Shown piece by piece: positions 5,773 to 60,250 of a DNA stretch of 64,000 nt. A program made the translations under genes and the position numbers. The notes beneath the pieces were generated by a model. That model saw only the letters and a list, made by a program, of their open reading frames with translations, had not been told where the DNA came from and ran no database searches. The stretch covers positions 10,144 through 74,143 of the forward strand of contig CAZQXK010000005.1 in assembly GCA_964597345.1 (NCBI GenBank), given 5' to 3'. Positions within the stretch are counted from its first letter, which is position 1. Every line of letters begins with the position of its first letter. The DNA is from an uncultured Thermodesulfobacteriota bacterium. Lineage in GTDB: Bacteria; Desulfobacterota; Desulfarculia; JACQYL01.

Positions 5773-6185
5773 GAATTTCTCCTTTGCGCTGGTTCGCGGG
5801 TGTGGGAGGCGAAGCCAGCATCGTCAGTTTATTTAAGAATTAGTATAGGTTGCCCGGACAGTCAAGCAAAAACGGGGTAAATCCCGGTCCGGGTTTCCGC
5901 GCAGCGGTGAATGTGCACGGGAACGTTCCTTGATGGGATTTAACAGGCCCTTGAAAAAGGCGATCTGCGGTCGCTCCAACGGCGTTGCGCTTCATCCTGC
6001 GGCGTACTGTATGTACGCCGCATTCCTCAGGATTCGCGCGCCTTGCATCTCATCGTTTTTCACCAGCCTGCGCGAAATACGGTACCCGAAATACGGTTTA
6101 TCAACGGGCTCTTAAGATGATATGATAATTAGTTGAGCGATGGGTTCCGAGAATGCAATGGGTTTTCACTTCGAGGGAGGTGGTT

Positions 6186-7202
6186 ATGACGGTTCAAAAG
6201 GGAGTCACCCTGGTGGAGCACATCCTGGACCAGGAGAAAGCGAACCCGGATGCTCGGGGGGCTTTCTCGAGACTGCTTACGGAGTTGGTGGTGGCGGCCA
6301 AGATCATATCCCGGGAAGTGAACCAATCGGGATTGGCCGAGTCCATGGGGTTTACAGGGGAAGTGAACATTCAGGGTGAGCAGGTGCAGAAACTGGACGA
6401 GTTCGCAAACCACCTGTTTATTCGGAGGATGCGGAAGTCGGGCATGCTGTGCGGCATGGCTTCCGAGGAAGTGGCGGATGTCATTGAAATTCCCGATCGG
6501 TTCGAATCCGGGGATTATCTTCTTCTCTTCGATCCCCTGGACGGTTCCACCAATATCGATGTGAACGTAAGTATTGGAACAATTTTCTCCATTTTAAGAC
6601 GGAAGTCCCCGGGTCCGCACATGCTGGTCAGCGACTTCCTGCGTCCCGGCAACGAGCAGGTGGCGGCGGGCTATTTCCTGTATGGGTCGAGCACCATGCT
6701 CGTGTACACGACGGGCAAGGGGGTGCACGGCTTCACCCTGGATCCGAGCGTAGGGGAGTTCTTTCTTTCCCATCCGGACATCCGGATTCCCGAGCGGGGA
6801 AAGATCTACAGCGTCAATGAGGGGAATTACCGATTCTGGCCCGAAACTATCCGGAACTACGTGGACTATTTGAAGAGTTCGGACAACAAGATGGGTAAAC
6901 CCTATTCCACGAGGTACGTGGGATCTCTGGTGGCGGATTTTCACCGAAATCTCCTGAAGGGCGGAATCTTCATGTACCCCGCGGATGCCAAGGATCCCAA
7001 CAAGCCCTTCGGAAAGCTGCGTTATTTGTACGAGTGCGCACCTCTCGCTTTCGTGGTGGAACAGGCGGGAGGGTATGCCAGTACCGGAGAGGGCCCCATC
7101 ATGGATTTCGTTCCTCAATCAATTCACCAGCGTTGTCCTCTGTATATAGGCAGTCGTCTGGACGTGATGGAGGCGGAAGAGTTTTTGCGTGGAGAACGCT
7201 GA
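6186..7202 (+). CDS. fbp: Fructose-1,6-bisphosphatase class 1
   Basis: Full-length FBPase I similarity ([16 protein letters not shown]); GGGAGG RBS; start at ATG 6186. Confidence 0.9.
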
Positions 7203-7226
7203 GTAGAGGAAGCGGGACTTTGGATC

Positions 7227-8264
7227 ATGCTGGTTCTGGGTATCGAGACATCCTGTGATGAGACAGCGGCGGCGGTGGTGGAAGACGGGCGGGTGATACG
7301 CTCCAACGTGGTGGCGAGCCAGGACGCCATCCACAAGGATTACGGGGGCGTGGTCCCGGAACTGGCCTCGAGAGAGCATATGCGGGCCGTTCTGCCGGTC
7401 ATCGACCGATCTCTCCGGCAGGCGGGAATTACCCTGCAACAAGTGGAAGGAATCGCGGTGACTCAGGGGCCCGGGCTGCTGGGGTCTTTGTTGATCGGTT
7501 TATGCGCCGCCAAATCCCTGGCCACGGTTCGTAATCTTCCCCTCGTGGGGGTGGACCACCTTGAAGCCCATGTGGCCGTGAACTTCCTGGGGGCGGCTCC
7601 TCCCGATTTCCCATTTACCGCACTGGTGGTCTCGGGGGGGCACACGAATCTGTACCACGTGACGAGTTTCTTCGACTTCGAGTTGCTCGGCCGGACCCGG
7701 GACGATGCGGCGGGGGAAGCTTTTGACAAAACCGCCAAGTTTTTGGGACTCGGATACCCGGGCGGGGTGGTGATCGACCGAATGGCCCGCGAAGGGGATA
7801 TGGAAGCCGTGAGGTTCCCCAGGGCCATGATGGATTCGGACTCCCTGGATTTCAGCTTCAGCGGTCTCAAGACCGCCGTCATCGCTTACATAAAGAAGCA
7901 TCCTCTGAACGGGGCCCGGGATGAACGGCGCGTGTGCGACATCGTCGCCGGTTTTCAGGAAGCCGTGGTGGATGTACTGACGGTCAAGGCGTTGCGCGCC
8001 GCAAAGGGGAACGACACCCGCCGACTGGTCCTTGCCGGAGGCGTGGCTGCGAACAGCCGCCTGCGCCTGAAACTGGGGGAAGGGTCCCGAACGGAAGGGG
8101 TGAAGCTTTTCGTACCGAGTCTTTCCTTATGTACGGACAACGCCGTGGGTGTGGCGGTGTTGGGGTATCATCGCTTGTGCGCGGGTCGTACGGATTCTCT
8201 GGACCTGGATGCCTACTCCCGCGTTCCCAAGTCTTTGTCCTATCCTTCGTCGGCGGTTTCATGA
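7227..8264 (+). CDS. tsaD: tRNA N6-adenosine threonylcarbamoyltransferase TsaD
   Basis: GIETSCDET start; Kae1/TsaD motifs throughout. Confidence 0.9.
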   Translation: MLVLGIETSCDETAAAVVEDGRVIRSNVVASQDAIHKDYGGVVPELASREHMRAVLPVIDRSLRQAGITLQQVEGIAVTQGPGLLGSLLIGLCAAKSLATVRNLPLVGVDHLEAHVAVNFLGAAPPDFPFTALVVSGGHTNLYHVTSFFDFELLGRTRDDAAGEAFDKTAKFLGLGYPGGVVIDRMAREGDMEAVRFPRAMMDSDSLDFSFSGLKTAVIAYIKKHPLNGARDERRVCDIVAGFQEAVVDVLTVKALRAAKGNDTRRLVLAGGVAANSRLRLKLGEGSRTEGVKLFVPSLSLCTDNAVGVAVLGYHRLCAGRTDSLDLDAYSRVPKSLSYPSSAVS

Positions 8265-9118
8265 GCCGTCAACCCCGGACGTTTCCTTCTCGACCCCGCA
8301 AACGTTGGGGACAGCATTTTCTACTGGATCCGAACCAGATCCGAAATATCGTGGAGTCATCCAGGCTCGAGGGGGGAGACTCTGTTCTGGAAATCGGCCC
8401 CGGCCGGGGATCTCTTACCGGCCCTCTGTGCGGTGCGGCGCGTTCCGTGACGGCGGTGGAGATTGATCCGGAGCTGGTGGGTTTCTTACGGGAGCGTTTC
8501 CGGGATTTCCCGAACCTCAGCGTGGTGTGCGGGGATTTCCTGAATTTCGACTTGGCCGCGTTGGCCCGAGACCAGGGGGGCGCTCTCGTGGTGGTGGGAA
8601 ACATTCCATACAATATTTCGGCGCCCATTCTCTTCCGACTGTTGGATTCCCGTTCTTCCATCCGCTCGGCGACCTTGATGCTGCAGAAAGAAGTGGCGGA
8701 TCGGATTCTGGCTCGGCCCGGCAGCAAAGCCTATGGGGTGCTCAGCCTATTGATTCCTTATGAAGCCCGGGCAAAGCGCCTGTTTTCTCTCCCTCCCTCG
8801 GCGTTCAGGCCGAAACCCAAGGTGGATTCCACGGTGATCCGCCTGGATTTCGAACAACCCCATCCGAGAAGAACTCCGTATCCGCATCTGTTCAGGGGCA
8901 TGGTCAAGGCGGGTTTCGGGAACCGCCGCAAGATGCTCAAGAACGCGTTGGGGAACAGCGCATCCGTGCCCGTCGATACGGGAATGGTGCTGGATGCGTT
9001 ATCGGCATGTTCTTTGAATCCGAAGGCGCGAGCCGAAAACCTGGAGTTGGATGACTTCCTGAAGTTGACGGAGGTGCTGGCATCCCGGATCCAGGGTCTC
9101 GACGTTGTGGAGGCCTAG
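8261..9118 (+). CDS. rsmA: 16S rRNA (adenine1518/1519-N6)-dimethyltransferase RsmA/KsgA
   Basis: GQHFL, EIGPGRGSLT and NIPYNIS motifs; ATG at 8261 overlaps the tsaD stop; the long N-terminal extension in the track is spurious. Confidence 0.9.
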   Translation: MSRQPRTFPSRPRKRWGQHFLLDPNQIRNIVESSRLEGGDSVLEIGPGRGSLTGPLCGAARSVTAVEIDPELVGFLRERFRDFPNLSVVCGDFLNFDLAALARDQGGALVVVGNIPYNISAPILFRLLDSRSSIRSATLMLQKEVADRILARPGSKAYGVLSLLIPYEARAKRLFSLPPSAFRPKPKVDSTVIRLDFEQPHPRRTPYPHLFRGMVKAGFGNRRKMLKNALGNSASVPVDTGMVLDALSACSLNPKARAENLELDDFLKLTEVLASRIQGLDVVEA

Positions 9119-9234
9119 TCGTCCGGAAAAGCGCGGTGCAGCGTTCCGGATTGGAATACCCGTGGAAGGCGCCTCGATGCGAGGAGGAAAACGGTTCCTG
9201 TCAAGGCATGGAGTCAAGGGGTGTTGTCAAGGGG

Positions 9235-10271: not shown

Positions 10272-10281
10272 GAGGAAATAC

Positions 10282-10887: not shown

Positions 10888-11012
10888 AAACAGGCGCCGA
10901 CAGGGGGGCGCCTGTAGTGTCTTCTTTGACTGCGGACTACTCCCTCTATGTGTCACTCCTCCGAATCTGTGCGTCCCGTATCTTGTCGTTTTTCGCCGAT
11001 CTTGCCCGGCCC
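10888..11012 (+). mobile_element. MITE-like repeat, degenerate copy (2a), right end truncated by adjacent copy 2b
   Basis: Aligns to the family consensus (AACAGGC...TGCGG...TATGT...ATCT.GTCGTTTTTCGCC) with many substitutions. Confidence 0.5.
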
Positions 11013-11018: not shown

Positions 11019-11198
11019 GCTTTTACAGTGAAAAGCGCGATCCGCAGTCACGCCTTCGGCGTGAGGCTTCATCCTTCATTATTGCGGCTACTGCATGTAC
11101 GCCTCATTCCTTAGGACTCACCACGCCAGAGGCGCGCCTTGCATCGCATCGTTTTGCACCGATCTGTCCGCAATACGGTTGATGAACGGGCTTTTGAG
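11019..11198 (+). mobile_element. MITE-like repeat copy 2b (degenerate left TIR, ~12-bp internal insertion)
   Basis: Has GTCACGCCttcGGCGTGA hairpin 1, TTGCGGCTACTGCATGTACGCC hairpin 2 and a right end ...GATGAACGGGCT. Confidence 0.7.
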
Positions 11199-11321
11199 AT
11201 TTGCTCAGGCGGTAGGAAGCGTTGCGCCGGTCGGGATTTGGAAATTGACTTCACCGCCGGCGGGTGCTATCTAATCCAACTTCGGTGTATGTCACACCCG
11301 CGTCGGAATAATGGAGTCCCC

Positions 11322-11472
11322 TAACAGGCCGTTGAAAAACGCGATCTGCTGAGTTGCGCTTCATCCTTCGTTCTTGCGGTGTACTGTACGCCTCATTCCG
11401 CAGGATTCGCGCGCCTTGCATCTCATCGTTCTTCGCCGGCCTGCCCGCAGTACTGTTTATCAAATGGCCGCC
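11322..11472 (+). mobile_element. MITE-like repeat copy 3 (lacks hairpin 1); ends ~30 bp upstream of the hisH ATG
   Basis: TA|ACAGGCCGTTGAAAAACGCGATCTGC...TCGTTCTTCGCCGGCCTGCCCGCAGTACTGTTTATCAA. Confidence 0.8.
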
Positions 11473-11502
11473 GGGGACTTTCAGGAGTCGGAAGAGCCGC
11501 TT

Positions 11503-14404: not shown

Positions 14405-14499
14405 CGGGCGAATACACGGATGTGGAAACATGCCGGCCGCAGTATCGGCTGCCGTCAATTCTGTTTTTGGTGCGGCGCCCGGTTGCGCAGGGCGCTTGG

Positions 14500-14660
14500 C
14501 ATGCCGTTGGAAAACGCGGGTCACGCCAACGGCGTGACACTTCATCCTTCGTCGTTGCGGCGTACCGTGTGTGCGCCTCAATCCTCAGGATTCGCGCGCC
14601 TTGCATCTCATCGTTTTTCACCGGCTTGTCCACAATGGTGTTTACCAACGGTTTGTTAGG
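14500..14660 (+). mobile_element. MITE-like repeat copy 4 (left TIR truncated)
   Basis: GTCACGCCAACGGCGTGAC hairpin, CTTCATCCTTCG, TTGCGGCGTACCGTGTGTGCGCC, CTCAGGATTCGCGCGCCTTGCATCTCATCGTTTTTCACCGG...CCAACGG. Confidence 0.8.
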
Positions 14661-14850
14661 ATCGGGTGGGACTACGGCGTATCCGGCGACCGTCTTTTTC
14701 GTTCGGGTTCGCGCTCCTGAAGGGCATCGGTTATCACCAGCCTTTCGGAATCCCTATTCTCATAGGACGGCGGAGGGGTTTCGGAGACTCGCTCCTGTAC
14801 CGTTCAGATGCTCCGATTGCTCAGAGCAGGACAGATATTGAGGTATTCTT

Positions 14851-20904: not shown

Positions 20905-22416
20905 ATGGGCGGTTTCACGGCGGAAATCAAGGTGGGGCTCCTGGTGTTGGCGGGGCTGATCGCCGTGGTCTACATGTCCTTCCAGGTGGGACGACCCGAT
21001 CCCACCGAACGGGATGGATACGAACTGGTGGCCTTCTTCGATACGGTCTCGGGGCTCAAACCGGGAACCCCCGTGGAGATGGCGGGTATCCGGATCGGAT
21101 CCGTGGAGGGTATCGGCCTCCATGAGGGAAGGGCCGAAGTGGTCCTGCGTATACGACCGGACGTGCTGATTGCCCATGACGCACAGGCCGTCATTCGGAC
21201 CCGCGGCGTCTTGGGAGACCGCTTCGTTCAGATTGTGCCCGGTTCCCCTCAGGAACCGGCCTTGACCCCCGGCTCGGAAATCGATCAGACGCAATCCCAG
21301 GTGGATGTGGATGAGCTGCTGGTGCAACTCACGGCCATCGCCGAGGATGTGAAATCGGTGACCGCCTCTTTGAAGGGAGCCGTCGGAGGCGTGGAAGGGG
21401 AAGAAACTCTCCGCGAAATCGTCGAAAACACGAGACGCGTCACGGGATCTCTGGACGCCATGGTCACTCGCAATACCGAGATCTTCGAGCAAATTTTGTC
21501 TAATTTCAGGAGCTTTTCCGCAGATCTCAAAGAATTGAGCGGTGTAAACAAAGAAAACGTGCATGTCCTGATCGCCAATGTACGTGGTGCCTCCGAATCC
21601 CTGGAGGAAACCCTGACCGGCCTTCAGTCGATCGTCCGGAGAGTGGAGCAGGGCGAGGGTACACTGGGACGTTTGTTGGTGGAGGATGAAACCATAGAGG
21701 AATTGAATGCGGCACTGGCGTCGGTCCGGGATGTTTCCGACAGAATCAGGAGGGGCGAAGGTACTCTGGGAAAGCTGGTGACGGATCCGTCCATCGGGGA
21801 GAAGTTGGATGAAACATTGACCCATGTGAGTTCTCTGACGGCCAGGGCGGAACGCTTAAGAGTCTACTTGGGCTATCGGGGTGAGTATCTGGTTCGAGGG
21901 GATGACGTGAAATCTTATGTGAACCTTCGAATCCAGCCCTCGTTGGATAAGTATTACCTGCTGAGCGTTGTGGATGATCCTCGGGGACGAATGCGAAGCA
22001 AAGTCACGGATCGTACGGTGACGCATCCCGACGGGAGCACCACGTTCGAGCGCGTGAGCGAGCAGCAGATCGACGAAGACGAACTCAAGTTTTCCGCGCA
22101 GATTGCCAAACGCTACTTTGATACCGCGATTCGAGGAGGTATTATTGAATCGACAGGCGGGTTCGGCGTGGATCATTACCTGTTCGACGACAATCTGAAG
22201 CTTTCCGCAGAGGTTTTTGATTTCGACTCCAGCCGTAAGCCCCATGTCAAGTTTTACGCGGATGCCAATCTCTTTGATCACTTCTATGTTACTGCGGGGT
22301 ACGACGACGCCTTCAGTGACCGGGGACGCAAATCCTTTTTTGTCGGTGCGGGTCTCCAGTTCAAAGACGATGATCTTAAGTTTCTCTTAGGCGGTACGAA
22401 CATCTCCTTGCCATGA
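20905..22416 (+). CDS. mlaD: MCE-family protein (MlaD-like, long form with C-terminal extension)
   Basis: N-terminal transmembrane helix plus MCE domain (LKPGTPVEMAGIRIGSVEGI); 503 aa. Confidence 0.8.
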   Translation: MGGFTAEIKVGLLVLAGLIAVVYMSFQVGRPDPTERDGYELVAFFDTVSGLKPGTPVEMAGIRIGSVEGIGLHEGRAEVVLRIRPDVLIAHDAQAVIRTRGVLGDRFVQIVPGSPQEPALTPGSEIDQTQSQVDVDELLVQLTAIAEDVKSVTASLKGAVGGVEGEETLREIVENTRRVTGSLDAMVTRNTEIFEQILSNFRSFSADLKELSGVNKENVHVLIANVRGASESLEETLTGLQSIVRRVEQGEGTLGRLLVEDETIEELNAALASVRDVSDRIRRGEGTLGKLVTDPSIGEKLDETLTHVSSLTARAERLRVYLGYRGEYLVRGDDVKSYVNLRIQPSLDKYYLLSVVDDPRGRMRSKVTDRTVTHPDGSTTFERVSEQQIDEDELKFSAQIAKRYFDTAIRGGIIESTGGFGVDHYLFDDNLKLSAEVFDFDSSRKPHVKFYADANLFDHFYVTAGYDDAFSDRGRKSFFVGAGLQFKDDDLKFLLGGTNISLP

Positions 22417-22524
22417 ACTCTCCGATGGTGCGGGGTTCCGGTTGCGGCCTTCATTCTGTGCAGGCGGAGTTCTTGCACGGTTTTCAACGATTCCATAAGA
22501 AATATTCCATAAGAGGGGGCCTGG

Positions 22525-24093
22525 GTGTTTCAATACGATCTGGACATGGACTGGCTGGATCAGAAAAAAGATCTATCCCGGGAAGAGATTCGAAAGAGGC
22601 TCTCGCGCATGCGTTCTCTTTGCCAAATGGTGCTGGAGATGGGCACCGACGGAATTCTCATTCTGGACGAAGAGGTATGTGTTGAATACGCAAATCGCAA
22701 GGCGGAGGAGCTGACGGGAATCAAGAAGGACCGACTCCTGGGCACCAAGTTCGATATTCTTTTGAACGACGTGGCCCGGCTTCCCTGGCTACAGATTCAC
22801 AGTGAGTTGGTAAGCCGCAAAGAAGACAGCCGCCGGTTTCTCACGGAATTCCTCATCAAGAGGCCCGACGGCTCTCAGTGTACCGTGGAGGCTTGTGTCA
22901 GCGTCGCCAGAACCGATGTGGGGCGTAAGACCTTTGTATATCTCCGGGAACAGACTCTCAAAGACGAAATCATGGATACCCTCCGCAGAACCAATGTGTT
23001 CCTATCCAACATCATCCGCAGTTCCGTGGACGGCATCATGGCCAGCGACATAAAAGGCAATGTGACCTTTTTCAACGAGTATGCCGAGCGTATGCTCGGC
23101 TACCGTTCGGAGGATGTGGTCGGGAAGATGCACATCAGCACGATTTACTCGGATCCGGCCGAAGCGCGTGAGATTATGGCCAAGATCCGGAGCGAGGAAT
23201 GCGGCGGTGTGGGCAAACTCACCACTACGCAAGTGAACTTGAAGGATCGTGAGGGTCGGATCATTCCCTGCAATCTCTCGGCAGCCATGATTTATGAGGA
23301 CGGACAGGAAAAAGCCACGGTGGGAATTTTTACCGACTTGAGAGAGCGGATCCGGATGGAACGGGAGTTGGAGGAAACCCATCTTCAGCTGGTGCAGTCC
23401 GAGAAGATGGCTTCCCTGGGAAAGCTGGCCGCCGGTGTAGCCCACGAAATCAACAATCCCCTCGGAGGGATTCTCATGTATGCCAACATCCTGATGGAAG
23501 ACATGAGCCCCGATAGCCCAGGCTGGAAAGATCTGGAGCACATCGTGGAGCAGACGCTCCGATGCAAGGATATTGTCCAGAACCTGTTGGATTTCAGTCG
23601 TCAAAGCGGAACCGAACAGATCTATTTCAGCGTGAATGAATGCGTGCAGAAGGTGGTTTCCTTATTCAAGGATCAGTCCATGCTGCACGATATACGAATA
23701 GTTCTCGAACTGGATCCGGAACTGCCGCGAGTATTGGGCAATCCGGGTCTAATGAATCAGGTCCTTACCAACTTACTGGTGAATGCCGTCGACGCCATGG
23801 AGGGGGAAGGGGTTCTGACGTTTCGTTCCAGGGCGGATTATCCCCAGGGTGTGCTGGTGGTCGAGGTGGAGGATACCGGGTGCGGGATTCCCGAAGAATT
23901 GCTTTCCCGAGTGTTCGACCCGTTCTTTACCACCAAGAAAGTGGGTAAAGGCACGGGACTGGGGCTGGCAACTTCGTACGGAATCGTCAAGCGCCACGGA
24001 GGTCGGCTTATGGTGAAAAGCGTCGAAGGTATGGGGTCCATTTTTCGTGTCGAACTTCCGATTCCTCCTGATGAGTCTTCCTCGCTACGATAA
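22525..24093 (+). CDS. PAS-domain sensor histidine kinase
   Basis: PAS-like repeats, H-box AAGVAHEINNPL, HATPase G-boxes (DTGCGIP, GTGLGL); GTG start with AAGAGGGGG RBS. Confidence 0.8.
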   Translation: MFQYDLDMDWLDQKKDLSREEIRKRLSRMRSLCQMVLEMGTDGILILDEEVCVEYANRKAEELTGIKKDRLLGTKFDILLNDVARLPWLQIHSELVSRKEDSRRFLTEFLIKRPDGSQCTVEACVSVARTDVGRKTFVYLREQTLKDEIMDTLRRTNVFLSNIIRSSVDGIMASDIKGNVTFFNEYAERMLGYRSEDVVGKMHISTIYSDPAEAREIMAKIRSEECGGVGKLTTTQVNLKDREGRIIPCNLSAAMIYEDGQEKATVGIFTDLRERIRMERELEETHLQLVQSEKMASLGKLAAGVAHEINNPLGGILMYANILMEDMSPDSPGWKDLEHIVEQTLRCKDIVQNLLDFSRQSGTEQIYFSVNECVQKVVSLFKDQSMLHDIRIVLELDPELPRVLGNPGLMNQVLTNLLVNAVDAMEGEGVLTFRSRADYPQGVLVVEVEDTGCGIPEELLSRVFDPFFTTKKVGKGTGLGLATSYGIVKRHGGRLMVKSVEGMGSIFRVELPIPPDESSSLR

Positions 24094-24123
24094 TCCTGAT
24101 TCCAAGAATCTGAATTCACGGAG

Positions 24124-25620
24124 GTGGAGGGGATGACGGATCCCGAACTCACGGTGGTTGTAGTGGATGATGAGAAACTCATCCGGGAAGGATGCGCCCG
24201 GGTTCTATCCAAAGCGGACTACCGGGTGTACACCGCCGAGAACGGCCGTGAGGGGTTGGACCTCATCATCCGCCGGCATGCGGATATCGCACTGTTGGAC
24301 CTGAAAATGCCCGTTATGGACGGGATGGCCGTTCTGGACGAAATCCGTGAGCGTCAATTGGATACGGTGGTGATTGTGATCACGGGTCATGGAACCATCG
24401 AGACGGCCGTTCAATCCATGAAACGCGGGGCGTACGATTTCATTACGAAGCCGTTTGCTCCGGATCAGGTTCGCATGGTAGTGCGCCGAGCCTGGGAAAT
24501 GAAACGCCTGGAAAGGGAAGCGGCGTTCCTTCGAGAAGAGCGGGCCAAAAGTCTCAGAGACATCGCCACAGAGAAAAGCCGTATTTCGAACATCATTCAG
24601 GCCATGGCCGATGGGGTGATCATCACGGATCAAAACGCGGAAATCGTACTGAACAATGCCGCCGCCTCACGGCTATTGGGGCTATCGCCCACGGTGCTGC
24701 GGGGTCGGAGTATTACGGAGGTTGTCGCCAATGCCGCCATGACCCGGGCCATCAGCCAGATTCTGAACGCGGATGCGCCCAACGTGTCCACCATAACCCA
24801 GGAATTGGAAGTAAGCGACGATGCACTGGTGCGAGCCACTTCGGGTGTGGTGAGGGATGAGGAAGGCACGCCCATGGGTACGGTGACGGTGCTCCAGGAC
24901 ATTGGACACGTGAAGCGGCTTGAACGAATGAAATCGGATTTCGTGTCCATGGTGGTTCACGAGTTGCGGTCACCTCTCGCGGCGATGCGCCAGCATGTGG
25001 ACTTGCTCCGTTCCCAAGTAATGGGGCCCTTGAATCCTACGCAGCGTGAGACTCTGGATCGTGTGGCGGAAAGAAGCACCGGGCTGTTGCGAATGATCAA
25101 TAACCTTCTGGATCTTTCCAAGATCGAAGCGGGGAAGCTGGTTTTGAACAAGGAACGCCTGGATATGAAGCCGGTAATCACCGCAGTTGTGGAGTTGATC
25201 CGGCCGCATGCCGAGGAACGGAACATTCGGGTGGAACTGGAGCTCCCGGATTCCCTCCCTCCCGTGCTCGGGGACCCCATGTATCTGGAAGGCGTTGTGA
25301 TGAATCTGGTCTCCAATGCCGTTCGATACAATCGGAACGGCGGTTCGGTCCATGTCCAGGCCGGATCCAAGGGGGACATGTTCCTTCTCGAAGTCTCGGA
25401 CACCGGCATCGGCATTGCGAAGGAAGATCTTCCACGGATTTTCGATCGATTCTACCGGGTCCGCAGCCGAGAAACCCGGAAAGTCGTTGGGACCGGTTTG
25501 GGGTTGCCCATCGTGAAAGGCGTGGTGGATGCCCACCTCGGCTCCATCGAAGTGGAAAGCGTTCCGGAACGGGGCACAATCTTTCGGGTGTTCATTCCAG
25601 CCGTTCCCGCCGCCTCCTGA
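24124..25620 (+). CDS. Hybrid response-regulator/sensor histidine kinase (N-terminal REC, PAS, HisKA, HATPase)
   Basis: VVVDDE...LLDLKMP REC domain; H-box HELRSPL; HATPase DTGIGI and GTGLGL. Confidence 0.8.
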   Translation: MEGMTDPELTVVVVDDEKLIREGCARVLSKADYRVYTAENGREGLDLIIRRHADIALLDLKMPVMDGMAVLDEIRERQLDTVVIVITGHGTIETAVQSMKRGAYDFITKPFAPDQVRMVVRRAWEMKRLEREAAFLREERAKSLRDIATEKSRISNIIQAMADGVIITDQNAEIVLNNAAASRLLGLSPTVLRGRSITEVVANAAMTRAISQILNADAPNVSTITQELEVSDDALVRATSGVVRDEEGTPMGTVTVLQDIGHVKRLERMKSDFVSMVVHELRSPLAAMRQHVDLLRSQVMGPLNPTQRETLDRVAERSTGLLRMINNLLDLSKIEAGKLVLNKERLDMKPVITAVVELIRPHAEERNIRVELELPDSLPPVLGDPMYLEGVVMNLVSNAVRYNRNGGSVHVQAGSKGDMFLLEVSDTGIGIAKEDLPRIFDRFYRVRSRETRKVVGTGLGLPIVKGVVDAHLGSIEVESVPERGTIFRVFIPAVPAAS

Positions 25621-26108
25621 AACGGATCCGGAATACAAATCGTTGACGCTGCCCCCCCCGACCCCTTAGAATCAAGCCAAGGAATCCTGTCGAAAAGGCA
25701 TCCGAGGGTCCGCCCAAAGGACCGCGAACAGCGCGGCCGCCGATACATGAATGGATAGGGCGTCCTCGTTGGTCCGGGCGTTGCGGCCTGCCTGAGCCGC
25801 GGAGATCCCGGCGTGTAGGGGTGCGGACAGCCTGCACCTCCGGGTCTTTACGTACGATTCATTGATGTGGACCCGTGTGCCTGGTCGCCTTGCGTCGGCC
25901 ACTGCCTCTCAGACCCGTACATACGCCGACGGGCAGGGAGTGAGGCGTCGGGCCGTTGAAGGACTTTTCGCCGGTGCAGCCGAAGGTCGATGTTGGGTCG
26001 TTAAAGTTCAGAAGAGAGGAGGGCTAATTCGGGAAGGTGTTCGAGCGAGTTGCGTAGTGTACGGATTTCGCGGAAGGAGCGGATCGGGGTGTTGAGGGCG
26101 CCGCGGAG

Positions 26109-26501
26109 TTGGCCAGGAGCAATGGGGCCCGGTTGTACTTTGTTCATGTCATTCCTCCCATCGTGGCCCCTTCCCCGGCCTTTGAGGAATTTGTGCCCAG
26201 CTATACTTCCATGGAGATTACCGAGGAAGTCATGAAAGCCTCCCAGGAAAAAATCAGCGAATGGTATGTCCCCCGCCTGCAGGATTACCCGAACTATGAG
26301 GTACGGATCGAAAATGGATATCCCTCCAATCGCATTGTAGAATTCGCCGAAAAGAATCAGGTCGATCTCATTGTCATGGGCTCTCAGGGCCTTACAGGGT
26401 TGGCCCACGTGTTCTTCGGAAGCACCGCGGAAAAGGTGGTTCGAAAAGCGGATTGCTCGGTTCTCTGCGTGAGGAGGCAACCGGAAAAGGATCCATCGTA
26501 A
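26109..26501 (+). CDS. Universal stress protein (UspA family), N-terminally short
   Basis: VMGSQGLTGLAHVFFGSTAEKVVRKADCSVLCV C-terminal Usp motif; TTG start; the first beta-strand/ATP-binding motif is missing and an in-frame stop lies 18 codons upstream. Confidence 0.55.
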   Translation: MARSNGARLYFVHVIPPIVAPSPAFEEFVPSYTSMEITEEVMKASQEKISEWYVPRLQDYPNYEVRIENGYPSNRIVEFAEKNQVDLIVMGSQGLTGLAHVFFGSTAEKVVRKADCSVLCVRRQPEKDPS

Positions 26502-26518
26502 ATCGAGGTGTGTTTCCC

Positions 26519-26911
26519 ATGCCCAATTCCGCCAGAATTTTGCTCGTGGACGACGACTACGACATGGTCGAATCCCTGAGACTTTTCCTGGAGGTGCGGG
26601 GGCTTCAAGTGGAATGCGCCTATACGGGCGAGGCGGCGTTGGATTGCGTGCGGAACTCGGTCCCGGATCTGTGTTTGCTGGACCTTGTTCTCCCGGACAC
26701 CGATGGGTTCAACCTCGTGGAGCGGATACGCGAACTTCCGGGTTGCGCAGCTATCCCGGTAATACTGATGACCGCCATGGGCACCGTCAGCGAGGCGCGA
26801 TCCTATTCGGGCATGGGGTCTCAACGCGTGGATGCCTTTGTGGTAAAACCTGTGGATTTTGATGAACTCAATGCGTTGCTGGATGCGTTGCTTCCCGTAT
26901 CCCGACTGTAA
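26519..26911 (+). CDS. Single-domain response regulator (REC only, CheY-like)
   Basis: ILLVDDD...LLDLVLPDTDG...VKP receiver motifs; 130 aa. Confidence 0.8.
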   Translation: MPNSARILLVDDDYDMVESLRLFLEVRGLQVECAYTGEAALDCVRNSVPDLCLLDLVLPDTDGFNLVERIRELPGCAAIPVILMTAMGTVSEARSYSGMGSQRVDAFVVKPVDFDELNALLDALLPVSRL

Positions 26912-27137
26912 TCCGGTCCATCGGCTTGACGGTGTTGCGACGATCCACTTCGGCGGATATCCATAGGCCCCGATTCCGAAAGCCGTATCTGTTCACTGGG
27001 AATGCAGGTGAGATGTCCCCGCGGCTTTTTCCTCCGGATTCCTGGAGAGATCCTCTTCCGCGGATCGGGTCCCGGAATTCGACGAATTTCATTGTCTACA
27101 GCGACAAGTTGGAGAAGCGTTCTAAAGGAGTTTCGCT

Positions 27138-32304: not shown

Positions 32305-32368
32305 GCGGGCTGTTGAAAAAGGCGATCTCCCGTCACGCCTTCGGCGTGACGATTCATCCGGACGCAAA
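32305..32368 (+). mobile_element. MITE-like repeat, left-end fragment (copy 5, ~65 bp)
   Basis: GGGCTGTTGAAAAAGGCGATCTCCCGTCACGCCTTCGGCGTGACGATTCATCC; lies ~40 bp upstream of the MBL hydrolase start. Confidence 0.6.
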
Positions 32369-32577
32369 AACCTCCGAACGGGAAACGGAGAAAAAACGTC
32401 TTCCTGCTCCTCAACCCGTTTCCGGGTGCGTATCGGAAGATGAACATAGCAATGAACCGCCGGTAGTGTCAATGCTATGCGGCAGTTTGGAATGGGCTCC
32501 GCCGACTCAGGGAGATGAAGCCGGGGAAGCATGTTCGGGAGGGAAAGCGTGCTTGGAATCGCCCCGGGAGGGGGAGT

Positions 32578-32732
32578 TAACAGGCCGCTGAAAAACGCGA
32601 TCTGCTTCGTTGGGCTTCATCTTTCGGCATTGCGGCGTACTGGTTGTACGCCTCATTCCTCAGGATTCGCCCGCCTTGCATCTCGTCGTTTTTGACCGGC
32701 CTGCCCGTAATGCTGTTTATCCACGGCTGTTA
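32578..32732 (+). mobile_element. MITE-like repeat copy 6 (full, clean TA flanks)
   Basis: TA|ACAGGCCGCTGAAAAACGCGATCTGC...GGCGTACTGGTTGTACGCC...CTGCCCGTAATGCTGTTTATCCACGGCTGT|TA. Confidence 0.85.
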
Positions 32733-32737
32733 AGGAT

Positions 32738-38268: not shown

Positions 38269-38350
38269 GTCCGTATCTCCATGGGCCCGAGCAAAGACCC
38301 TTCTGTGTCGGCGCAGACACCGTGGCGCTCGAACCCTCTCCGCCGCAGCT

Positions 38351-38518
38351 TACCAAGCTGTTGAAAAACGCGATCTGCTTTCACGCCTTTGGCGTGACGC
38401 TTCATCCTTCGTTCTTGCGGCGTACTGGTTGTGCGCCTCATTCCTCAGGATTCGCGCGCCTTGCATCTCATCGTTTTTGAACAGCCTGCCCGAAATGCTG
38501 TTTTTCAACGGGTCGTTA
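38351..38518 (+). mobile_element. MITE-like repeat copy 7 (full), inserted between the two rdgC fragments
   Basis: TA|CCAAGCTGTTGAAAAACGCGATCTGC, TCACGCCTTTGGCGTGAC hairpin, ...CAACGGGTCGT|TA. Confidence 0.85.
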
Positions 38519-39202: not shown

Positions 39203-39282
39203 GGTGTTGGAAGACGATCTCCATGTAAGGGTTTTCGGGGGGGGAAGGCGCGATCCCCCCAACGTCGAACCTCATCCAGCCT

Positions 39283-39380
39283 TACCAGGCCGTTGAAAAA
39301 CAAGAGCTACCGTCATGCCTTTGGCGTGACGCTTCGTCTTTCGTTCTTGCGGCGTACTGTATGTACGCCTCGTTCCTCTT
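39283..39380 (+). mobile_element. MITE-like repeat copy 8 (left ~100 bp only; truncated)
   Basis: TA|CCAGGCCGTTGAAAAACAAGAGC...GTCATGCCTTTGGCGTGAC...TTGCGGCGTACTGTATGTACGCCTCGTTCCTC, then the homology stops. Confidence 0.7.
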
Positions 39381-40183: not shown

Positions 40184-40387
40184 ATATCATCCTCTATATC
40201 CGGTTGGATCGGCGGGAAGGAGGAGCGTCTCGAAACCTTGAGACCGGGATGAGCCGGGCACGATGAACAAAACCCATCTCACGGACGGCCTCGAAGAATT
40301 CCAAGGCATATTGAAAGGTCCTTTCACGGTGGCAACGATTGCGGGGTAAGCCTCGTCCCGGAGTGTTTCCCGGGGATACGCAGGGTC

Positions 40388-40529
40388 TAACAGGCTGTGG
40401 AAAAACGCGATCTGCTGTGTTGCGCTCCCGGCGTACAGTATGTACGCCTCATTCCTCAGGATTCGCCCGCCTTGGATCTCATCGTTTTACACCGGCCTTT
40501 CCGTAATACTGTGTATCAACGGGCTGTTA
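40388..40529 (+). mobile_element. MITE-like repeat copy 9 (lacks hairpin 1)
   Basis: TA|ACAGGCTGTGGAAAAACGCGATCTGC...GGCGTACAGTATGTACGCC...TGTATCAACGGGCTGT|TA. Confidence 0.85.
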
Positions 40530-41006
40530 AACGTGCCGCGCACGCCGCACCGCTGTCCTGCGCCGTGAAGTGGGAAGGTTCTACGGGACTATCGCCGAAC
40601 TTGTCAAGTGGAATATGGCCGCAGCCTGTAAGGCTTGCCAAGCGGGATTATCTGCGGTATTTCTATCCCGGCGGTTGTTTGTTCAGACTATTCCACGCGT
40701 TCAATCCTGGTACAGCCGGAAGCCTCCCAACTACAAAGGTTCCGATGTCTGCGCCGGACATACTTCCTCGGAGGATCGTCCGCAAGTCCGTTGCATGTCA
40801 CGGAATCCCGGATGGGTTGGACCTGGAGTATGTTCCGGCTGTTGCGCCCGCGGGGCCATGGGATGCACCCGGAAGGCCGGAGAAAGGCGCGATCTGCGGT
40901 GTTGACTTTTCGCTTGGTTTCAGCTGCGTATTCCGTGGAGGTGTCGTCCCGTGATTGACGCATTTCAAGAAGCATCGACCTGGACAACGCGCCGGCAAGT
41001 CGGGTC

Positions 41007-41162
41007 TATCAGGCTTTTGAAAAACGCGATATGCGGCATTGGGCTTTATCCTTCGTCATTGCGGCGTACTGTAGGTACGCCTCATTCCTCAGGATTCGCC
41101 CGCCTTGCATCTCATCGTTTCGCACCGCCCTGCCCTTAATAAGGTTTATCAACGGGCTGCCA
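41007..41162 (+). mobile_element. MITE-like repeat copy 10; ends ~53 bp upstream of the enoyl-CoA hydratase ATG
   Basis: TA|TCAGGCTTTTGAAAAACGCGATATGC...GGCGTACTGTAGGTACGCC...GGTTTATCAACGGGCTGC. Confidence 0.8.
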
Positions 41163-41215
41163 GAGTGGGCGGCGGCGATTTTTTGATGAGGCGGATAGAA
41201 AGCAGGAGACAGGAG

Positions 41216-50074: not shown

Positions 50075-50137
50075 ATCCGTTTCCCGGCAAAAACGTTCCC
50101 TATCATCCGTTCTCACGTTCTCCGAGTTTCCCTGATT

Positions 50138-50335
50138 TGCAGGCCGTTGAAAAACTCGATCTGCTGTAACGCCAAGGCGTGACGTTTCATCTTTTCTGCC
50201 TGTGCGTCCCACGCAGACAGGCGTCATTGCGCCGTACCGTATGTACGCCTCATTTCGCCACGCCGAAGGCGCGGCCTGCATCTCATCGTCTTACACCGGC
50301 CCGCCCGCAATACTTGTGCGTCAACGGGCTGTCAG
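50138..50335 (+). mobile_element. MITE-like repeat copy 11 (198 bp; carries an extra internal hairpin CTGCCTGTGCGTCCCACGCAGACAGGCG)
   Basis: GCAGGCCGTTGAAAAACTCGATCTGC...TAACGCCAAGGCGTGAC...insertion...CCGTATGTACGCC...TGTGCGTCAACGGGCTGT. Confidence 0.8.
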
Positions 50336-50558
50336 GGGCCCTTGTTTCGGCAGGGGAGGATAGGGTCCAACGCCTATCGCTTCCGGTCCCTGGAATATTC
50401 CAAGACATAAGACATGAAGACCAACAAAAAAGTCAGCCAAAAAACAGGCTGCCAGGACTGGGTATCCAGGAAGAATCGGGTGAGAAAAAGTGCGGCGCCG
50501 AGGCTCAGGGCGCAACGGATCAACAGTTTCAAGACGGGATTCATGCAAGGCCCTCATT

Positions 50559-50724
50559 TAACAGGCTGGTGAAAAACGCGACCTGCTGTCACGCTAAGGC
50601 GTGATGCTTCATCCTTCGTCATTGCGGCGTACGGGTTGTACGCCTCATTGCTCACCTTCGCGCGACTTTCATCGCATCGTCTTTGAGCAGCCTGTTCGAA
50701 ATGGTGTTTACCAACGGGCTGCTA
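50559..50724 (+). mobile_element. MITE-like repeat copy 12 (full); its right flanking TA lies inside the ruvB stop codon
   Basis: TA|ACAGGCTGGTGAAAAACGCGACCTGC, GTCACGCTAAGGCGTGAT hairpin (G-T/G-U compatible), ...CCAACGGGCTGC|TA(G). Confidence 0.85.
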
Positions 50725-51747
50725 GTATATCGAGTCTTGGATGGCGGGCCCCTTATGACCGAAGTATTCGAAGGCCAGCCGGGTCGCCACCCTGCCCCGA
50801 GGCGTTCTTTTCAAGAACCCCAGCTGTATCAGAAAGGGCTCATACACGTCTTCGATTGTGTCCTTCTCCTCTCCGATGGCTGCGGCCAATGTTTCCAATC
50901 CCAGGGGGCCCCCGTCGAATTTTTCGATGATGGTCAACAGAATCTTTCGATCCATACGGTCGAAACCGCGTTCGTCCACGTCCAGCATACACAGGGCGTG
51001 TCGGGCCACTTCCAAGGTGATGATCCCGTCTGCCCGGACCTGGGCGTAATCCCGTACCCTTCGCAGGAGCCTGTTGGCCACCCTGGGTGTGCCACGACTT
51101 CGGCGGGCGATCTCGAAAGCCCCGTCCGGTTGTATGGGAACCTTGAGAATCTGGGCGGTACGATTGACGATGTAGGTCAACTCTTCCGTCCCATAAAACT
51201 CCAGGTGCAATACCACGCCGAATCGATCTCTCAACGGAGGCGTGAGCAGCCCCGCTCGGGTGGTGGCGCCCACCAGCGTGAATGGAGGAAGGTCCAACTT
51301 GATGGAACGCGCCCCGGGACCCTGACCGATGACGATGTCCAGCTGGAAATCTTCCATCGCCGGATACAGGATTTCTTCCACTACGTGGCTTAAGCGATGT
51401 ATCTCATCGATGAACAACACGTCGTACGGATCCAGGTTCGTCAGGATGGCCGCCAGATCTCCGGGGCGGTCCAGGACGGGGCCGCTTGTGGCCTTGAGGT
51501 TGACGTTCAGCTCCCGGGAAATGATGTGAGCCAGGGAGGTTTTTCCCAGGCCGGGGTGTCCATGGCAGAGTACGTGGTCCATGGCTTCGCCCCGCTGCCG
51601 GGCGGCCTGGATACAGATACGAAGGTGTTCTTTTACTGGGCCCTGACCGATGTATTCGTCCAGTGAATTCGGTCTCAGGCTGACCTCTACCCGCTCCTCT
51701 CCGAGTTCCTGGACGGGATTCAGAACATCTCGCGGGTCATCGGACAT
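50722..51747 (-). CDS. ruvB: Holliday junction branch migration helicase RuvB
   Basis: Walker [21 protein letters not shown]; full-length RuvB. Confidence 0.95.
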
Positions 51748-54210: not shown

Positions 54211-54317
54211 CTGAACGTATAAGTATATTCAGCCGGTAGAGCAAAAGTCAATTTCAAAGGATTGGGAGCTTGGGACGGGACAGAACGAAATCGAACGGGC
54301 CTGTTCGGTTCTCCGCT

Positions 54318-54473
54318 TAGCAAGTCGGTGAAATACACGATCTGCGGCTTTGTGCTTCATCCTTCGTCATTGCGGCGTACTGCAAGTACGCCTCATTCCT
54401 CAGGATTCGCCCGCTTTGCATTTCATCGTTTTTCACCGGCCTTCCCGTAATACAGTTTATCAACGGCGTGATA
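54318..54473 (+). mobile_element. MITE-like repeat copy 13 (lacks hairpin 1)
   Basis: TA|GCAAGTCGGTGAAATACACGATCTGC...GGCGTACTGCAAGTACGCC...CAGTTTATCAACGGCGTGA|TA. Confidence 0.8.
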
Positions 54474-54579
54474 GGAGCTTTTCCGGAGCTGCCTGAAGCG
54501 GCGTGAAAGCGGGTCACCGGATCAGTGTACGCAATCCGCCTGGGGCAATCCGGACATCCCCCGAAACTCCATCGATTGG

Positions 54580-55932: not shown

Positions 55933-56108
55933 GTCCGGAGAATGCCAGCGGACGAAGAAAGGTTCTCCATTTGGGTTTGGGGGGTCGGACGGATCACACC
56001 GGCCGGTATTCGGAGCGCGGGTCCTGTGGGAGGCGCCGTCATGACCCGCGGTGGTTTGAGGCAGCCGTATGCGGTGGGAATGCCCAGGTTCTTCCACCAG
56101 CGCGTTAT

Positions 56109-56305
56109 TAAACCGTGTGAGTGCGGGCCAATGCAAAACGATGAGATGCAAGGCGGGCGACTTCTGAGGAATGAGGCGTGCATACAGTACGTCGCAATGA
56201 CGCCTGTCTGCGCCTGCCTGTGCGCGTCCGCCCGCAGACAGGTGGACGCACAGGCAGAAAGGATGAAGCCTAACGACGCAGATCGAGTCTTTCAACGGCC
56301 TGCTA
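56109..56305 (-). mobile_element. MITE-like repeat copy 14, the only reverse-oriented copy; carries the extra-hairpin insertion; its flanking TA lies inside the stop codon of the downstream rRNA methyltransferase gene
   Basis: Reverse complement of the family consensus (AACGATGAGATGCAAGGCG..GAGGAATGAGGCGTGCATACAGTACG...CAACGGCCTGC|TA). Confidence 0.85.
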
Positions 56306-57490: not shown

Positions 57491-57675
57491 GCCGCCAACA
57501 GCGGGAACCGGATCAGGAATGTTCCCACTGCGCTAACCTCCTGTACGGACGAAAGACCACGGTAAGCCGGGAAAAGCCGTTTCAGCCGGGGTGAATCTAT
57601 TCTACGGTTACGGATCCGTCAAACTGAAAGCCGCCTTTTGATGTATTCAGGATCGATCCTTGTCTCTTTCATCCT

Positions 57676-57834
57676 TATCCGACTGGTGAAAGACGCGACC
57701 TGCTGTCACGCCAACAGCGTGACGGCTCATCCTCCGTCATTGCGGCATACTGTATGTACGCCGCATGCCTAAGGATTCGTGGGCCTTGTATCTCATCGTT
57801 CTTTGCCGGTCCGCCCGCAGACTTCATATCATTA
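57676..57834 (+). mobile_element. MITE-like repeat copy 15 (degenerate right end)
   Basis: TA|TCCGACTGGTGAAAGACGCGACCTGC, GTCACGCCAACAGCGTGAC hairpin, GGCATACTGTATGTACGCC...CCGCCCGCAGAC.. Confidence 0.75.
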
Positions 57835-59179: not shown

Positions 59180-59460
59180 AAAGCACCTCCTGTTTCAATT
59201 TCACGTCATGGCGGAATGTACCGCCGTCGAGCCTTGAAGTGAACTATCGTTTTCAACCCTGCACGGAACGCCGCCATATGTGAGCGCAAAGCTCCAACGC
59301 GTCCCTGCCGGCGATAACTCCCAGGCCGAACTGTACCCAAGGCTGAGCCCCCTTGTCAACGAACTCGCCGCATGAAGGGATGCGACATGGTCCCATCATG
59401 AGTCGGAGCGTTCAAGAAACTACCTTCGGGCTGCTGGGTCACTATGACGGAGTGCGGTGT

Positions 59461-59489
59461 TTGACCTCGTCTTCCCGCGGAAGTATAAG
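59461..59489 (+). promoter_or_regulatory. Candidate sigma70 promoter (TTGACC-N17-TATAAG) for the 59583 gene
   Basis: Good -35/-10 with a 17-nt spacer, about 95 bp upstream of the ATG. Confidence 0.4.
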
Positions 59490-59582
59490 GAAATATAGGG
59501 ATCGGGAAAAATAACTCGGAAGCCTTCCGCAGATATGCGGATTCCCAAGCGGCATGCAAGGGTCTTCTGGAGGAATACAAGG

Positions 59583-60161
59583 ATGAAACGGAACTATTGC
59601 TTGAACGTATTACTCTTGAGTGCGATGTTAGGTTTTTCAGCTGGGGATTACGCGGAAACGTCGGCCCAGTCTACGGCTGAACCCACTTTCGCGGTACTAC
59701 CGTTCTTTATGCCGGGTGAAGCGAAAGACTATGTGCACGTGATCATGAAATCGCTTTACGACGTGGTGGAAGACATGGAACTCTTCGTGCCTGCGTATTC
59801 CTATTACCCCGGGGATGGAAGATACTCGCCTGAAGCCATTCCCGCAGGTCAATTACAGCCCGGCGAGATATCAAGGCTTTGGAAGCGGAAGAGTTTCTTC
59901 GCTCCCTGGGAGCCCAATGACGCTCTCGTGTTCGAGATCGGGGAGAGGCTGGGAGTCGATGGAGTGCTTCTCTATTCGGTGCAGATCTTGGGTCGTGGAA
60001 ACGACCGAATTCAGTCATTTTTGTATCATATCAAAGATCGCCGGGTCCTTACCAGAGGAGTGGTGGACGAGATCAAGCATAACTACACCAGTGAAATCTC
60101 CACGGTGATGCTCTCCTCCCGAATTCGACAGGTGACTGCCGACGTGTTTTACAAGTTCTAA
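59583..60161 (+). CDS. Secreted hypothetical protein with signal peptide
   Basis: MKRNYCLNVLLLSAMLGFSAG signal; AAGGA RBS; FAVLPF motif as seen in periplasmic/outer-membrane-associated domains; its stop TAA is the TA flank of MITE copy 16. Confidence 0.5.
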   Translation: MKRNYCLNVLLLSAMLGFSAGDYAETSAQSTAEPTFAVLPFFMPGEAKDYVHVIMKSLYDVVEDMELFVPAYSYYPGDGRYSPEAIPAGQLQPGEISRLWKRKSFFAPWEPNDALVFEIGERLGVDGVLLYSVQILGRGNDRIQSFLYHIKDRRVLTRGVVDEIKHNYTSEISTVMLSSRIRQVTADVFYKF

Positions 60162-60250
60162 CAGGCTGTCGAAAAAACGCGATCTGACGTACCGTCTGTG
60201 GCGTACATTTTCTTCCTTGCCGTATCTGTGATCGGCCTGTCCGAGCCGGT
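60159..60250 (+). mobile_element. MITE-like repeat copy 16 (degenerate/truncated, ~90 bp)
   Basis: TA|ACAGGCTGTCGAAAAAACGCGATCTGACGTACCGTCTGTGGCGTAC...ATCTGTGATCGGCCTGTCCG. Confidence 0.55.

Follow-up and report, generated by a model that had tools for sequence, protein, structure and literature searches.

What kind of element is repeated in the intergenic DNA of an uncultured Thermodesulfobacteriota bacterium, and what kind of enzyme moved it? The question is raised by a stretch of 64,000 nucleotides (GenBank assembly GCA_964597345.1, contig CAZQXK010000005.1, positions 10,144 to 74,143 of the forward strand), referred to here as the window. An earlier note, made from the sequence without database searches, described 17 copies of a repeat bracketed by TA dinucleotides and assigned them to a non-autonomous miniature inverted-repeat transposable element (MITE) mobilised by an IS630/Tc1-mariner-type transposase. 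The repeats do form a MITE family, designated W-type, and the TA is the centre of a 4-bp target-site duplication (TSD). The copies are probably old products of a non-autonomous cut-and-paste MITE, moved in trans via an IS5-like 4-nt stagger at N-T-A-N and equipped with a conserved structured hairpin module. The core of this hairpin is common to a sister family, designated S-type, found in other metagenome-assembled genomes (MAGs).

A profile built with nhmmer from eight window copies was searched against the whole 64-kb window and recovered 14 strong W-type copies (E 6e-20 to 2e-51); a repeat finder likewise grouped 5-12 copies in each segment. All 17 sites of the earlier note were located; three of them hold only fragments or very degenerate copies, and two remnants had been overlooked: a minus-strand one at 5319-5428 and, at 4216-4259, a solo right end. 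W-type sequence totals about 2.5 kb, or 3.9% of the window, somewhat below the earlier figure of about 5%. On a codon-usage gene map every copy lies between predicted genes, and 102 of the 103 sites in a larger W-type sample are intergenic. Relatives were gathered by a metagenome scan with the left arm of the element, which gave 120 loci (920 kb) with 243 profile matches, 165 of them full length; 137 sites remained after the removal of orthologous duplicates, and the 74 with clean CAGG...GCTG ends were used for TSD statistics. A second scan, with a 25-nt core pattern and one genome per species, returned at least 70 loci from at least 24 MAG assemblies, labelled, among the matches listed, mostly as Syntrophus, Smithella, Syntrophaceae or Syntrophales.

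The W-type element occurs in a short form of 150 bp and a long form of 162 bp, the latter being the short form with one optional hairpin, GTCACGCC-N3-4-GGCGTGAC. Its ends read 5'-CAGGCYGTTGAAAAAC ... GTTTATCAACGGGCTG-3' and form a 16-bp imperfect terminal inverted repeat (TIR) in which 13 of 16 positions match; the left TIR, L, is CAGGCTGTTGAAAAAC, the reverse complement of the right end, R2, is CAGCCCGTTGATAAAC, and most columns are at least 90% conserved over 133 copies. The parts follow in the order L, optional hairpin, core, R1, a spacer of about 11 nt, and R2. The L arm is CAGGCYGTTGAAAAACGCGATCTGC. R1, GCATCTCATCGTTTTTCACCGGCCTG, is an internal inverted copy of L located about 100 nt downstream of it, and R2, GTTTATCAACGGGCTG, is a second, shorter inverted copy of L and the true right end of the element. 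The core reads GCGC TTC ATCCT TCGTCATTGC GGCGTAC-loop-GTACGCC TCATTCCTC AGGAT TC GCGC GCCTT. Coordinates and the term 'written strand' follow the orientation given to the consensus in the earlier note. The loop of the innermost helix, P4, varies in length (4-6 nt plus insertions), so there is no conserved reading frame; coding potential of the core was excluded on this ground. Small (150-162 bp), multi-copy, intergenic, without coding capacity and bounded by TIRs and a TSD of fixed length, the W-type element is a non-autonomous MITE, as had been proposed. The two internal hairpins and the imperfect inverted repeat of about 16 bp also stand as first described; the ends, given at first as ACAGG...GCTGT, are CAGG...GCTG, the terminal A...T pair being present in 5/74 copies.

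An exact 4-bp direct repeat flanks 22 of the 74 sites, whereas 2000 shuffles gave 2.6 such sites on average and never more than 9. Left and right flanks agree at the four positions with frequencies of 0.72, 0.77, 0.70 and 0.61, where 0.28 and 0.26 are expected at the two outer ones. No other flank register at these 74 sites gives comparable agreement, and the 2-bp register gives one exact case against 3.8 expected. The target is N-T-A-N, with T at position 2 in 62/74 and A at position 3 in 58/74, and sites without TA are also duplicated over 4 bp (CCGG/CCGG, ACAA/ACAA, GTGG/GTGG and TTGA/TTGA). The 'TA flanks' are thus the centre of a 4-bp duplication, and the TA duplication proposed earlier has to be abandoned; the 4-bp TSD and the depleted 2-bp register also contradict the attribution to an IS630/Tc1-mariner-type transposase. 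IS5 duplications follow (C/T)TA(A/G) (PMC5009759). The 4-bp N-T-A-N duplication therefore matches IS5 (YTAR) and not IS630/Tc1-mariner, where TA only is duplicated. To judge by the TSD length, the target motif and a loose TIR resemblance to the IS903 end, the W-type element was apparently mobilised by an IS5-like DDE transposase.

The two inverted copies of L differ in their role. L pairs with R1, not with R2, and an L-core-R1 hairpin of about 125 nt is formed; this hairpin, like the core common to the S-type family and the strand asymmetries described below, had been overlooked in the earlier note. The inner helices are P2 (GCGC/GCGC), P3 (ATCCT/AGGAT) and P4 (GGCGTAC/GTACGCC), with conserved internal loops between them. 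RNAalifold, applied to 71 copies, recovered the L-R1 stem with compensatory changes in 14 of 20 pairs. In a manual 38-pair structure comprising the P1 arms, P2, P3 and P4, 90.6% of cells are paired (shuffles: 80.5%, 0/500). This structure has a covariation score of 0.255, where shuffles give 0.098 and slid partners 0.04-0.07; double changes occur in 23 pairs. Compensatory changes are exemplified by GACGGCGCCG...CGGCGCCGTC of locus L037, by P2 (GCGC/GCGC to GGGC/GCCC) and by a diverged 'core B' (ATCCT/AGGAT to AAACC/GGTTT; GTAC/GTAC to GTAT/ATAC). Within the W-type family, position 6 of L (C or T) tracks R1 in 92 concordant and 35 discordant cases, while R2 remains C. In both families, invariance of the A5 and T5 tracts within the arms reaches 90% or more. 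Minimum free energy (MFE) z-scores of single copies range from -4.6 to -8.3 on either strand.

The hairpin core reaches beyond the W-type family. In 20 MAG assemblies, mostly labelled Syntrophales among the matches listed, only the core (model positions ~19-108) matches the W-type profile. The elements there, the S-type, have other arms (GACGGCTTCGTAAAAAGGCCGGATGC ... GCCTGCGGCCTTTTTACGAAGCCGTC, a spacer and CTTTTTACGAGGTCGTC) within the common L-core-R1-spacer-R2 architecture. The two consensus sequences are identical at 68 of the 69 nt of the core; outside it, 13/26 and 12/25 positions match in the arms and 0/6 in the P4 terminal loop. The S-type TSD measures 6 bp (exact in 21 of 41 cases, where about 1 would be expected) and 7 bp in five cases; it mostly consists of A/T-rich sequence ending in T. 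S-type arms enclose other small cargos too, one of them with a duplication (L024:3832, AACTTT), so it is the arms, not the core, that define mobility. W-type copies are present, too, in the Syntrophobacteraceae MAG CAYOVG01 and in a single MAG that bears the label Pseudomonadota (L070), and a W-like element with 'core B' is found in two Syntrophales MAGs that also hold S-type copies (L063:3347-3475 and L052:1238-1360). In L063 the S-type copy (ATCCTT/ATCCTT) and the W-like copy (CTAA/TTAA) each keep their own TSD length within one genome, which implies two transposases.

The strands of the element are not equivalent. Mismatches on the written strand are A:C in 111 cases and G:T in 54 (53 and 11 in the core helices), and, as RNA, the complement is the better-folding strand of 62 among 71 copies (mean -60.0 vs -53.3 kcal/mol). 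Both the wobble and the folding-energy asymmetry indicate that the functional single strand, if any, is the complement of the written consensus. Orientation in the genome is also biased: 13 of the 14 strong window copies lie on the plus strand, which is G-rich throughout the window. In the larger sample the bias is weaker: the written strand is on the locally G-rich strand at 83/123 unique W-type sites (p = 1.3e-4), and at 54/84 in the first set of loci (p = 0.012). In intervals between genes of the same direction, 26 copies are co-directional and 38 opposite, and the intergenic classes that hold copies are tandem (64), divergent (22) and convergent (17). With 26 against 38 copies and all interval classes used, the orientation bias is not a by-product of gene direction; it could reflect replication-coupled targeting or selection.

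In the favoured explanation, a MITE moved in trans by an IS5-like enzyme, the transposase would cut its target with a 4-nt stagger at N-T-A-N, and the four bases would thereby be duplicated. The hairpin may descend from the 3' terminal terminator or insulator hairpin of a lost parent insertion sequence (IS), running from R2 toward L, with the outer TIR of the parent as the 3' arm of the terminator hairpin; loss of the transposase gene by deletion would leave R2, the spacer and the hairpin. This origin is preferred because of the A5-stem-T5 layout, the better fold of the complementary strand and the R2-spacer-hairpin order. An A5-stem-T5 hairpin could stop transcription in both directions, which would make intergenic insertions tolerable. 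The covariation is found mostly between sub-lineages, which points to selection on source elements and not on each copy; the hairpin would accordingly be kept because the source element, and not each single copy, succeeds by it. It most likely acts as a single-stranded fold on the complementary strand.

An autonomous element or cognate transposase was sought in the window and in about 1.5 Mb of fetched loci, and none was found, whether of the IS630 type for which the earlier note had suggested looking or of any other. No transposase is encoded among 40 window open reading frames (ORFs) scanned against Pfam or, according to its precomputed annotation, on contig L072, which is 99% identical, in agreement with the earlier observation for the window. 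Within the fetched loci, TIR pairs that are separated by 300-4000 bp and agree in their duplication represent only neighbouring MITEs, no TIR pair encloses an ORF, and no ORF is present in several copies in differing contexts. The ORFs beside solo arms and truncated copies are housekeeping genes (thiolase, LeuA, aminopeptidase and similar). A plasmid database search with one copy gave no match, and the S-type TIR, when scanned against viral contigs, matched singly in 36 places, apparently by chance.

The absence of a partner element in the window and fetched loci weighs against the favoured explanation, as do several further points. The outer target bases are only weakly biased (65% Y at the first position, 59% R at the fourth), and the IS5-like assignment rests on duplication length and motif and on a loose TIR likeness to the IS903 end. 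Among about 150 flank comparisons over the fetched contigs no empty site was found; the empty-site comparison that the earlier note had called for was thus made, and every orthologous site proved to be filled, so the case for the 4-bp duplication is statistical. The covariation comprises far fewer independent events than cells, being largely between sub-lineages, and inverted repeats may stay complementary via DNA-level processes. A simple terminator scan did not flag the copies above shuffles, and the interval classes show no enrichment, which leaves a terminator or insulator role without support from placement. Finally, a plain hairpin would suffice for termination, and the 68/69 identity of the core, unpaired bases included, is left unexplained.

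In a different account, the mobile element would carry a functional structured RNA as cargo (a small regulatory, protein-binding, ribozyme-like or guide-like RNA) on the complementary strand, the MITE being its vehicle and not a deletion remnant. Near-identity of the core between families whose TIRs are about 50% identical and whose TSDs are unlike in length is consistent with such cargo. So are the unpaired internal-loop bases, conserved like the stems while the P4 loop is free, the compensatory changes in P2, P3 and P4, 'core B' included, and the wobble and MFE asymmetry toward one strand. Against it, no Rfam family matches, and neither the copies nor the sequence next to them show a promoter consensus; inspection by eye and a promoter scan both led to the rejection of a core promoter of the sigma-54 or sigma-70 type. 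Orientation is not tied to the flanking genes, the per-column decay of old copies looks neutral save at sub-family sites, and helices P2-P4 rest on few independent changes. An RNA cargo is on the whole unlikely. A broader proposal, somewhat less doubtful, is that the core of 69 nt functions as a single-stranded module, most likely a complementary-strand RNA, constrained more than the transposase-binding ends and kept by, or exchanged between, two MITE lineages. These lineages would differ in transposition chemistry (a 4-bp against a 6-7-bp stagger) and reside in different syntrophic lineages of Thermodesulfobacteriota. If the proposal is true, the elements are vehicles that disperse a structured RNA, or the fold is part of the transposition mechanism; to our knowledge, neither has been established for bacterial TIR/TSD elements.

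The age of the copies bears on another possibility, that of a domesticated REP/ERIC-type host element which selection would keep for termination, mRNA stabilisation or nucleoid-protein binding and which would no longer be meaningfully mobile. The RuvB protein encoded in the window (G+C content 56.6%) shares 99% identity with proteins encoded by JGI metagenome contigs 220-269 kb long; for the next-best matches, Syntrophobacterales isolates among them, identity is only 76-80%. Two contigs, L072 and L073, align with window positions 40680-61748 at 99.0-99.5% identity, and all window copies in that interval are present in both. The window is accordingly assigned to an uncultured species resembling Syntrophobacteraceae. 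Pairwise identity among 70 W-type short-form copies is 83%, and the divergence is spread fairly evenly, a few sub-family sites (loops, spacer and covarying positions) excepted. W-type copies are old and fixed in this species. In the S-type family, orthologous sites with the same flanking genes were observed in differing Smithella/Syntrophus species (L008:1732-1857 and L034:944-1069; L012:5673-5800 and L037:2095-2222), so that some insertions are older than speciation. Such old, fixed and orthologous sites, the strictly intergenic placement and the A5-stem-T5 architecture would suit a domesticated element. On the other side, the copies have no preferred position or orientation with respect to genes, truncated and decayed copies are common, and the decay appears uniform. 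Moreover, MAG JAKQIZ01 holds nearly identical S-type copies, often placed at contig ends, a sign that the sister family has recently been active and has spread there. Taken together, these points make domestication distinctly unlikely, more so than an RNA cargo. One W-type copy, L196:11676-11843 with TTAT/TTAT flanks, was observed on a contig classified as viral (IMG/VR UViG_3300005145_000110), which may be one way in which the family spreads horizontally.

Still less probable is a single-stranded DNA element moved by an HUH enzyme (REP/RAYT, IS200/IS605 PATE-like or rolling-circle) that recognises the folded strand at the replication fork. The G-rich strand bias described above (13/14 in the window, 83/123 unique sites, and 54 vs 30 in the first set of loci) and the long hairpin with compensatory changes specific to copy lineages are what such an element might show. 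IS200/IS605 and REP systems, however, yield neither fixed-length duplications nor TIRs, and the present elements have TIRs and fixed two-sided duplications, of 4 bp in W-type and 6-7 bp in the sister family. In addition, REPs are only 20-40 nt long, the strand compatible with wobble is the C-rich one and not that expected to be exposed as lagging-strand template, and no Y1/HUH gene was found near the copies, either among the window ORFs or among those beside truncated copies. Just as improbable is the original proposal of a MITE with TIRs ACAGG...CCTGT inserted at TA, with duplication of TA only, by an IS630/Tc1-mariner-type transposase: TA is indeed the commonest flank centre and IS630 prefers N-TA-N targets, but the bases outside TA co-vary as a direct repeat, the 2-bp register is below expectation, few copies have the terminal A...T, and sites without TA are duplicated over 4 bp.

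The W-type family appears to be undescribed, as had been supposed. Rfam gave no match at gathering score in the window and a single chance match (E 6.7) on one S-type copy at E<=10; a tRNA/tmRNA scan of the window found none. The searchable literature on Syntrophus MITEs and insertion sequences, and on the core sequence, contained no relevant description.

The window copies, given here with the profile match in brackets, lie on the plus strand unless stated. Short-form copies are found at 32581-32729 (32575-32736; 149 bp, flanks TTAA/TTAA, E 2e-51), at 41010-41159 (41004-41165; 150 bp, decayed flanks CTAT/CCAG, E 4e-51) and at 54321-54470 (54315-54476; 150 bp, TTAG/ATAG, E 5e-51). The L-core-R1 hairpin of the first, 32581-32703, has RNA fold z-scores of -6.1 (plus) and -6.7 (minus). 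The long-form copy at 38354-38515 (38348-38518; 162 bp, E 5e-51) is flanked by TTAC/TTAC, an exact non-palindromic 4-bp duplication, and its hairpin, 38354-38488, has z-scores of -4.6 (plus) and -5.6 (minus). A second long-form copy is located at 50562-50721 (50556-50727; 160 bp, TTAA/CTAG, E 2e-46). The stop codon of ruvB (TAG, minus strand) at 50722-50724 lies inside the CTAG that abuts its right end; this insertion is therefore exactly at the gene end. The copy at 14500-14655 (14494-14662; 156 bp, TTGG/TTAG, E 2.5e-47) has the extra hairpin GTCACGCC-N4-GGCGTGAC.

Other strong copies have been altered in various ways. The full copy at 5944-6111 (5938-6117; 168 bp, TTAA/TTAA, E 6e-45) has a short duplication in the spacer before R2. 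At 11027-11193 (11027-11198; E 5e-33) the left end is degenerate, R2 is recognisable and the core has a 12-nt insertion; at 11325-11470 (11321-11475; 146 bp, CTAA/CCGG, E 2e-47) the left TIR is perfect and the right end decayed. The copy at 40391-40526 (40385-40530; 136 bp, CTAA/TTAA, E 5e-39) has a 14-nt internal deletion, and that at 57679-57820 (57675-57820; E 6e-28) has diverged ends, the right one decayed. A 5' fragment at 39286-39378 (39281-39378; E 6e-20, model positions 4-89) retains the left TIR, the extra hairpin and the first half of the core. The weaker items are a 5' fragment with left TIR and extra hairpin at 32306-32362 (32308-32359; E 7e-5), a weak 5' fragment of the left TIR region at 60162-60216 (60157-60216; E 2e-3) and a very degenerate, borderline remnant at 10930-11002 (E 0.025). 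The overlooked remnants are a degenerate minus-strand copy at 5319-5428 (E 7e-8), upstream of a DivIVA domain gene in which the Pfam domain starts at ORF residue 47, and the solo right end at 4216-4253 (4216-4259; E 1e-3), which is R2-like with one mismatch.

Two strong copies contain nested palindromes. The copy at 50140-50331 (50135-50337; 192 bp, E 3e-27) has a small palindromic core insertion at about 50196-50223. The only strong minus-strand copy, 56098-56302 (56093-56305; 205 bp, flanks GTAG/GTGG, E 2e-22 and 5e-10), has one of about 56 nt at the same core position (56203-56259). The inserts, TCTGCCTGTGCGTCC...GCAGACAGGC, are related and stand at the same point in both. Nested palindromes recur at such core positions elsewhere, in L004, L030 and L066 after CATCCTTC, and in L028 and L038 in the P4 loop; they may be a second tiny repeat family or mark a MITE sub-lineage. 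Within the copy at 50140-50331, 39 bp (50217-50255) are absent from L072 and L073, and this indel takes out helix P4; it is the only structural difference over 21 kb between the window and these contigs.

The genes around the copies are of housekeeping type: the Pfam scans of the 40 ORFs identified FBPase, TsaD, KsgA, PanC/PanD, G6PD, 6PGD and RuvB among others, as well as an MlaE/MlaD-type transporter and histidine kinases. Exact-protein searches added little to this annotation: two proteins had no record, and a third led only to a 5.9-kb contig. At 20905-28418 three paralogous sensor kinases (PAS/HisKA/HATPase) and a response regulator come after an MlaD-domain protein; the repeat among the three kinases is the common HisKA motif and is unrelated to the MITE. 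At 60381-63962 lies part of a protein of about 2500 aa with FG-GAP, CLIPPER and BNR repeats, which continues past the window in L072; two further repeats detected in the window are internal repeats of this protein.

The usual MITE has conserved ends and a free interior. The W-type and S-type families invert this pattern: the interior is nearly invariant and structured, and the ends and the duplication length differ. The repeats occupy about 4% of a housekeeping region and have relatives in at least 24 species-level MAG assemblies, and thus affect assembly, annotation and probably transcription boundaries in an ecologically important group. Candidate roles for the hairpin are a terminator relic, an insulator useful to the host and an RNA needed for mobility.

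Among known systems, the W-type element is like IS5 and IS5-derived MITEs in its 4-bp TSD centred on TA with weak outer Y...R, and unlike IS5 in that the outer target bases are nearly free (N-T-A-N); the S-type departs further, with its 6-7-bp duplication. The W-type TIR (GGC..GTTGAA.AAA type) loosely resembles the IS903 end, GGCTTTGTTGAATAAATC, a sequence confirmed only as adjoining genes annotated 'IS5 family transposase' in E. coli. The duplication made by IS903 itself is 9 bp long, unlike the 4 bp of W-type. As for the S-type, duplications of 6-7 bp are made by the ISDol1 group of ISNCY. Correia elements (NEMIS) of Neisseria are abundant intergenic MITEs of about 100-160 bp with short and long forms, which form a hairpin in transcripts and have reported effects as terminators, promoters and processing sites. 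W-type elements are likewise abundant, intergenic and hairpin-forming, with short and long forms. Correia elements, however, duplicate TA and have 26-bp TIRs that pair mutually, whereas the W-type has an L that pairs with R1, a 4-bp TSD and an unrelated sequence. ERIC (IRU) sequences of enterobacteria are imperfect palindromes of about 127 bp with a core conserved across genera, and larger variants arise by insertions at fixed sites; the conserved imperfect palindrome and the nested insertions at one core position of W-type are similar. ERIC differs in hosts and sequence, and its mobility and duplication are poorly defined, whereas the duplications here are statistically clear and one core is common to two TIR/TSD classes, W-type and S-type. 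REP/BIME sequences and IS200/IS605 PATEs, too, are repeats that lie between genes, form hairpins and are biased in strand or orientation, but they are 20-40-nt palindromes or hairpin-ended units without TIR or TSD, whereas the W-type element, at 150-162 bp, has both.

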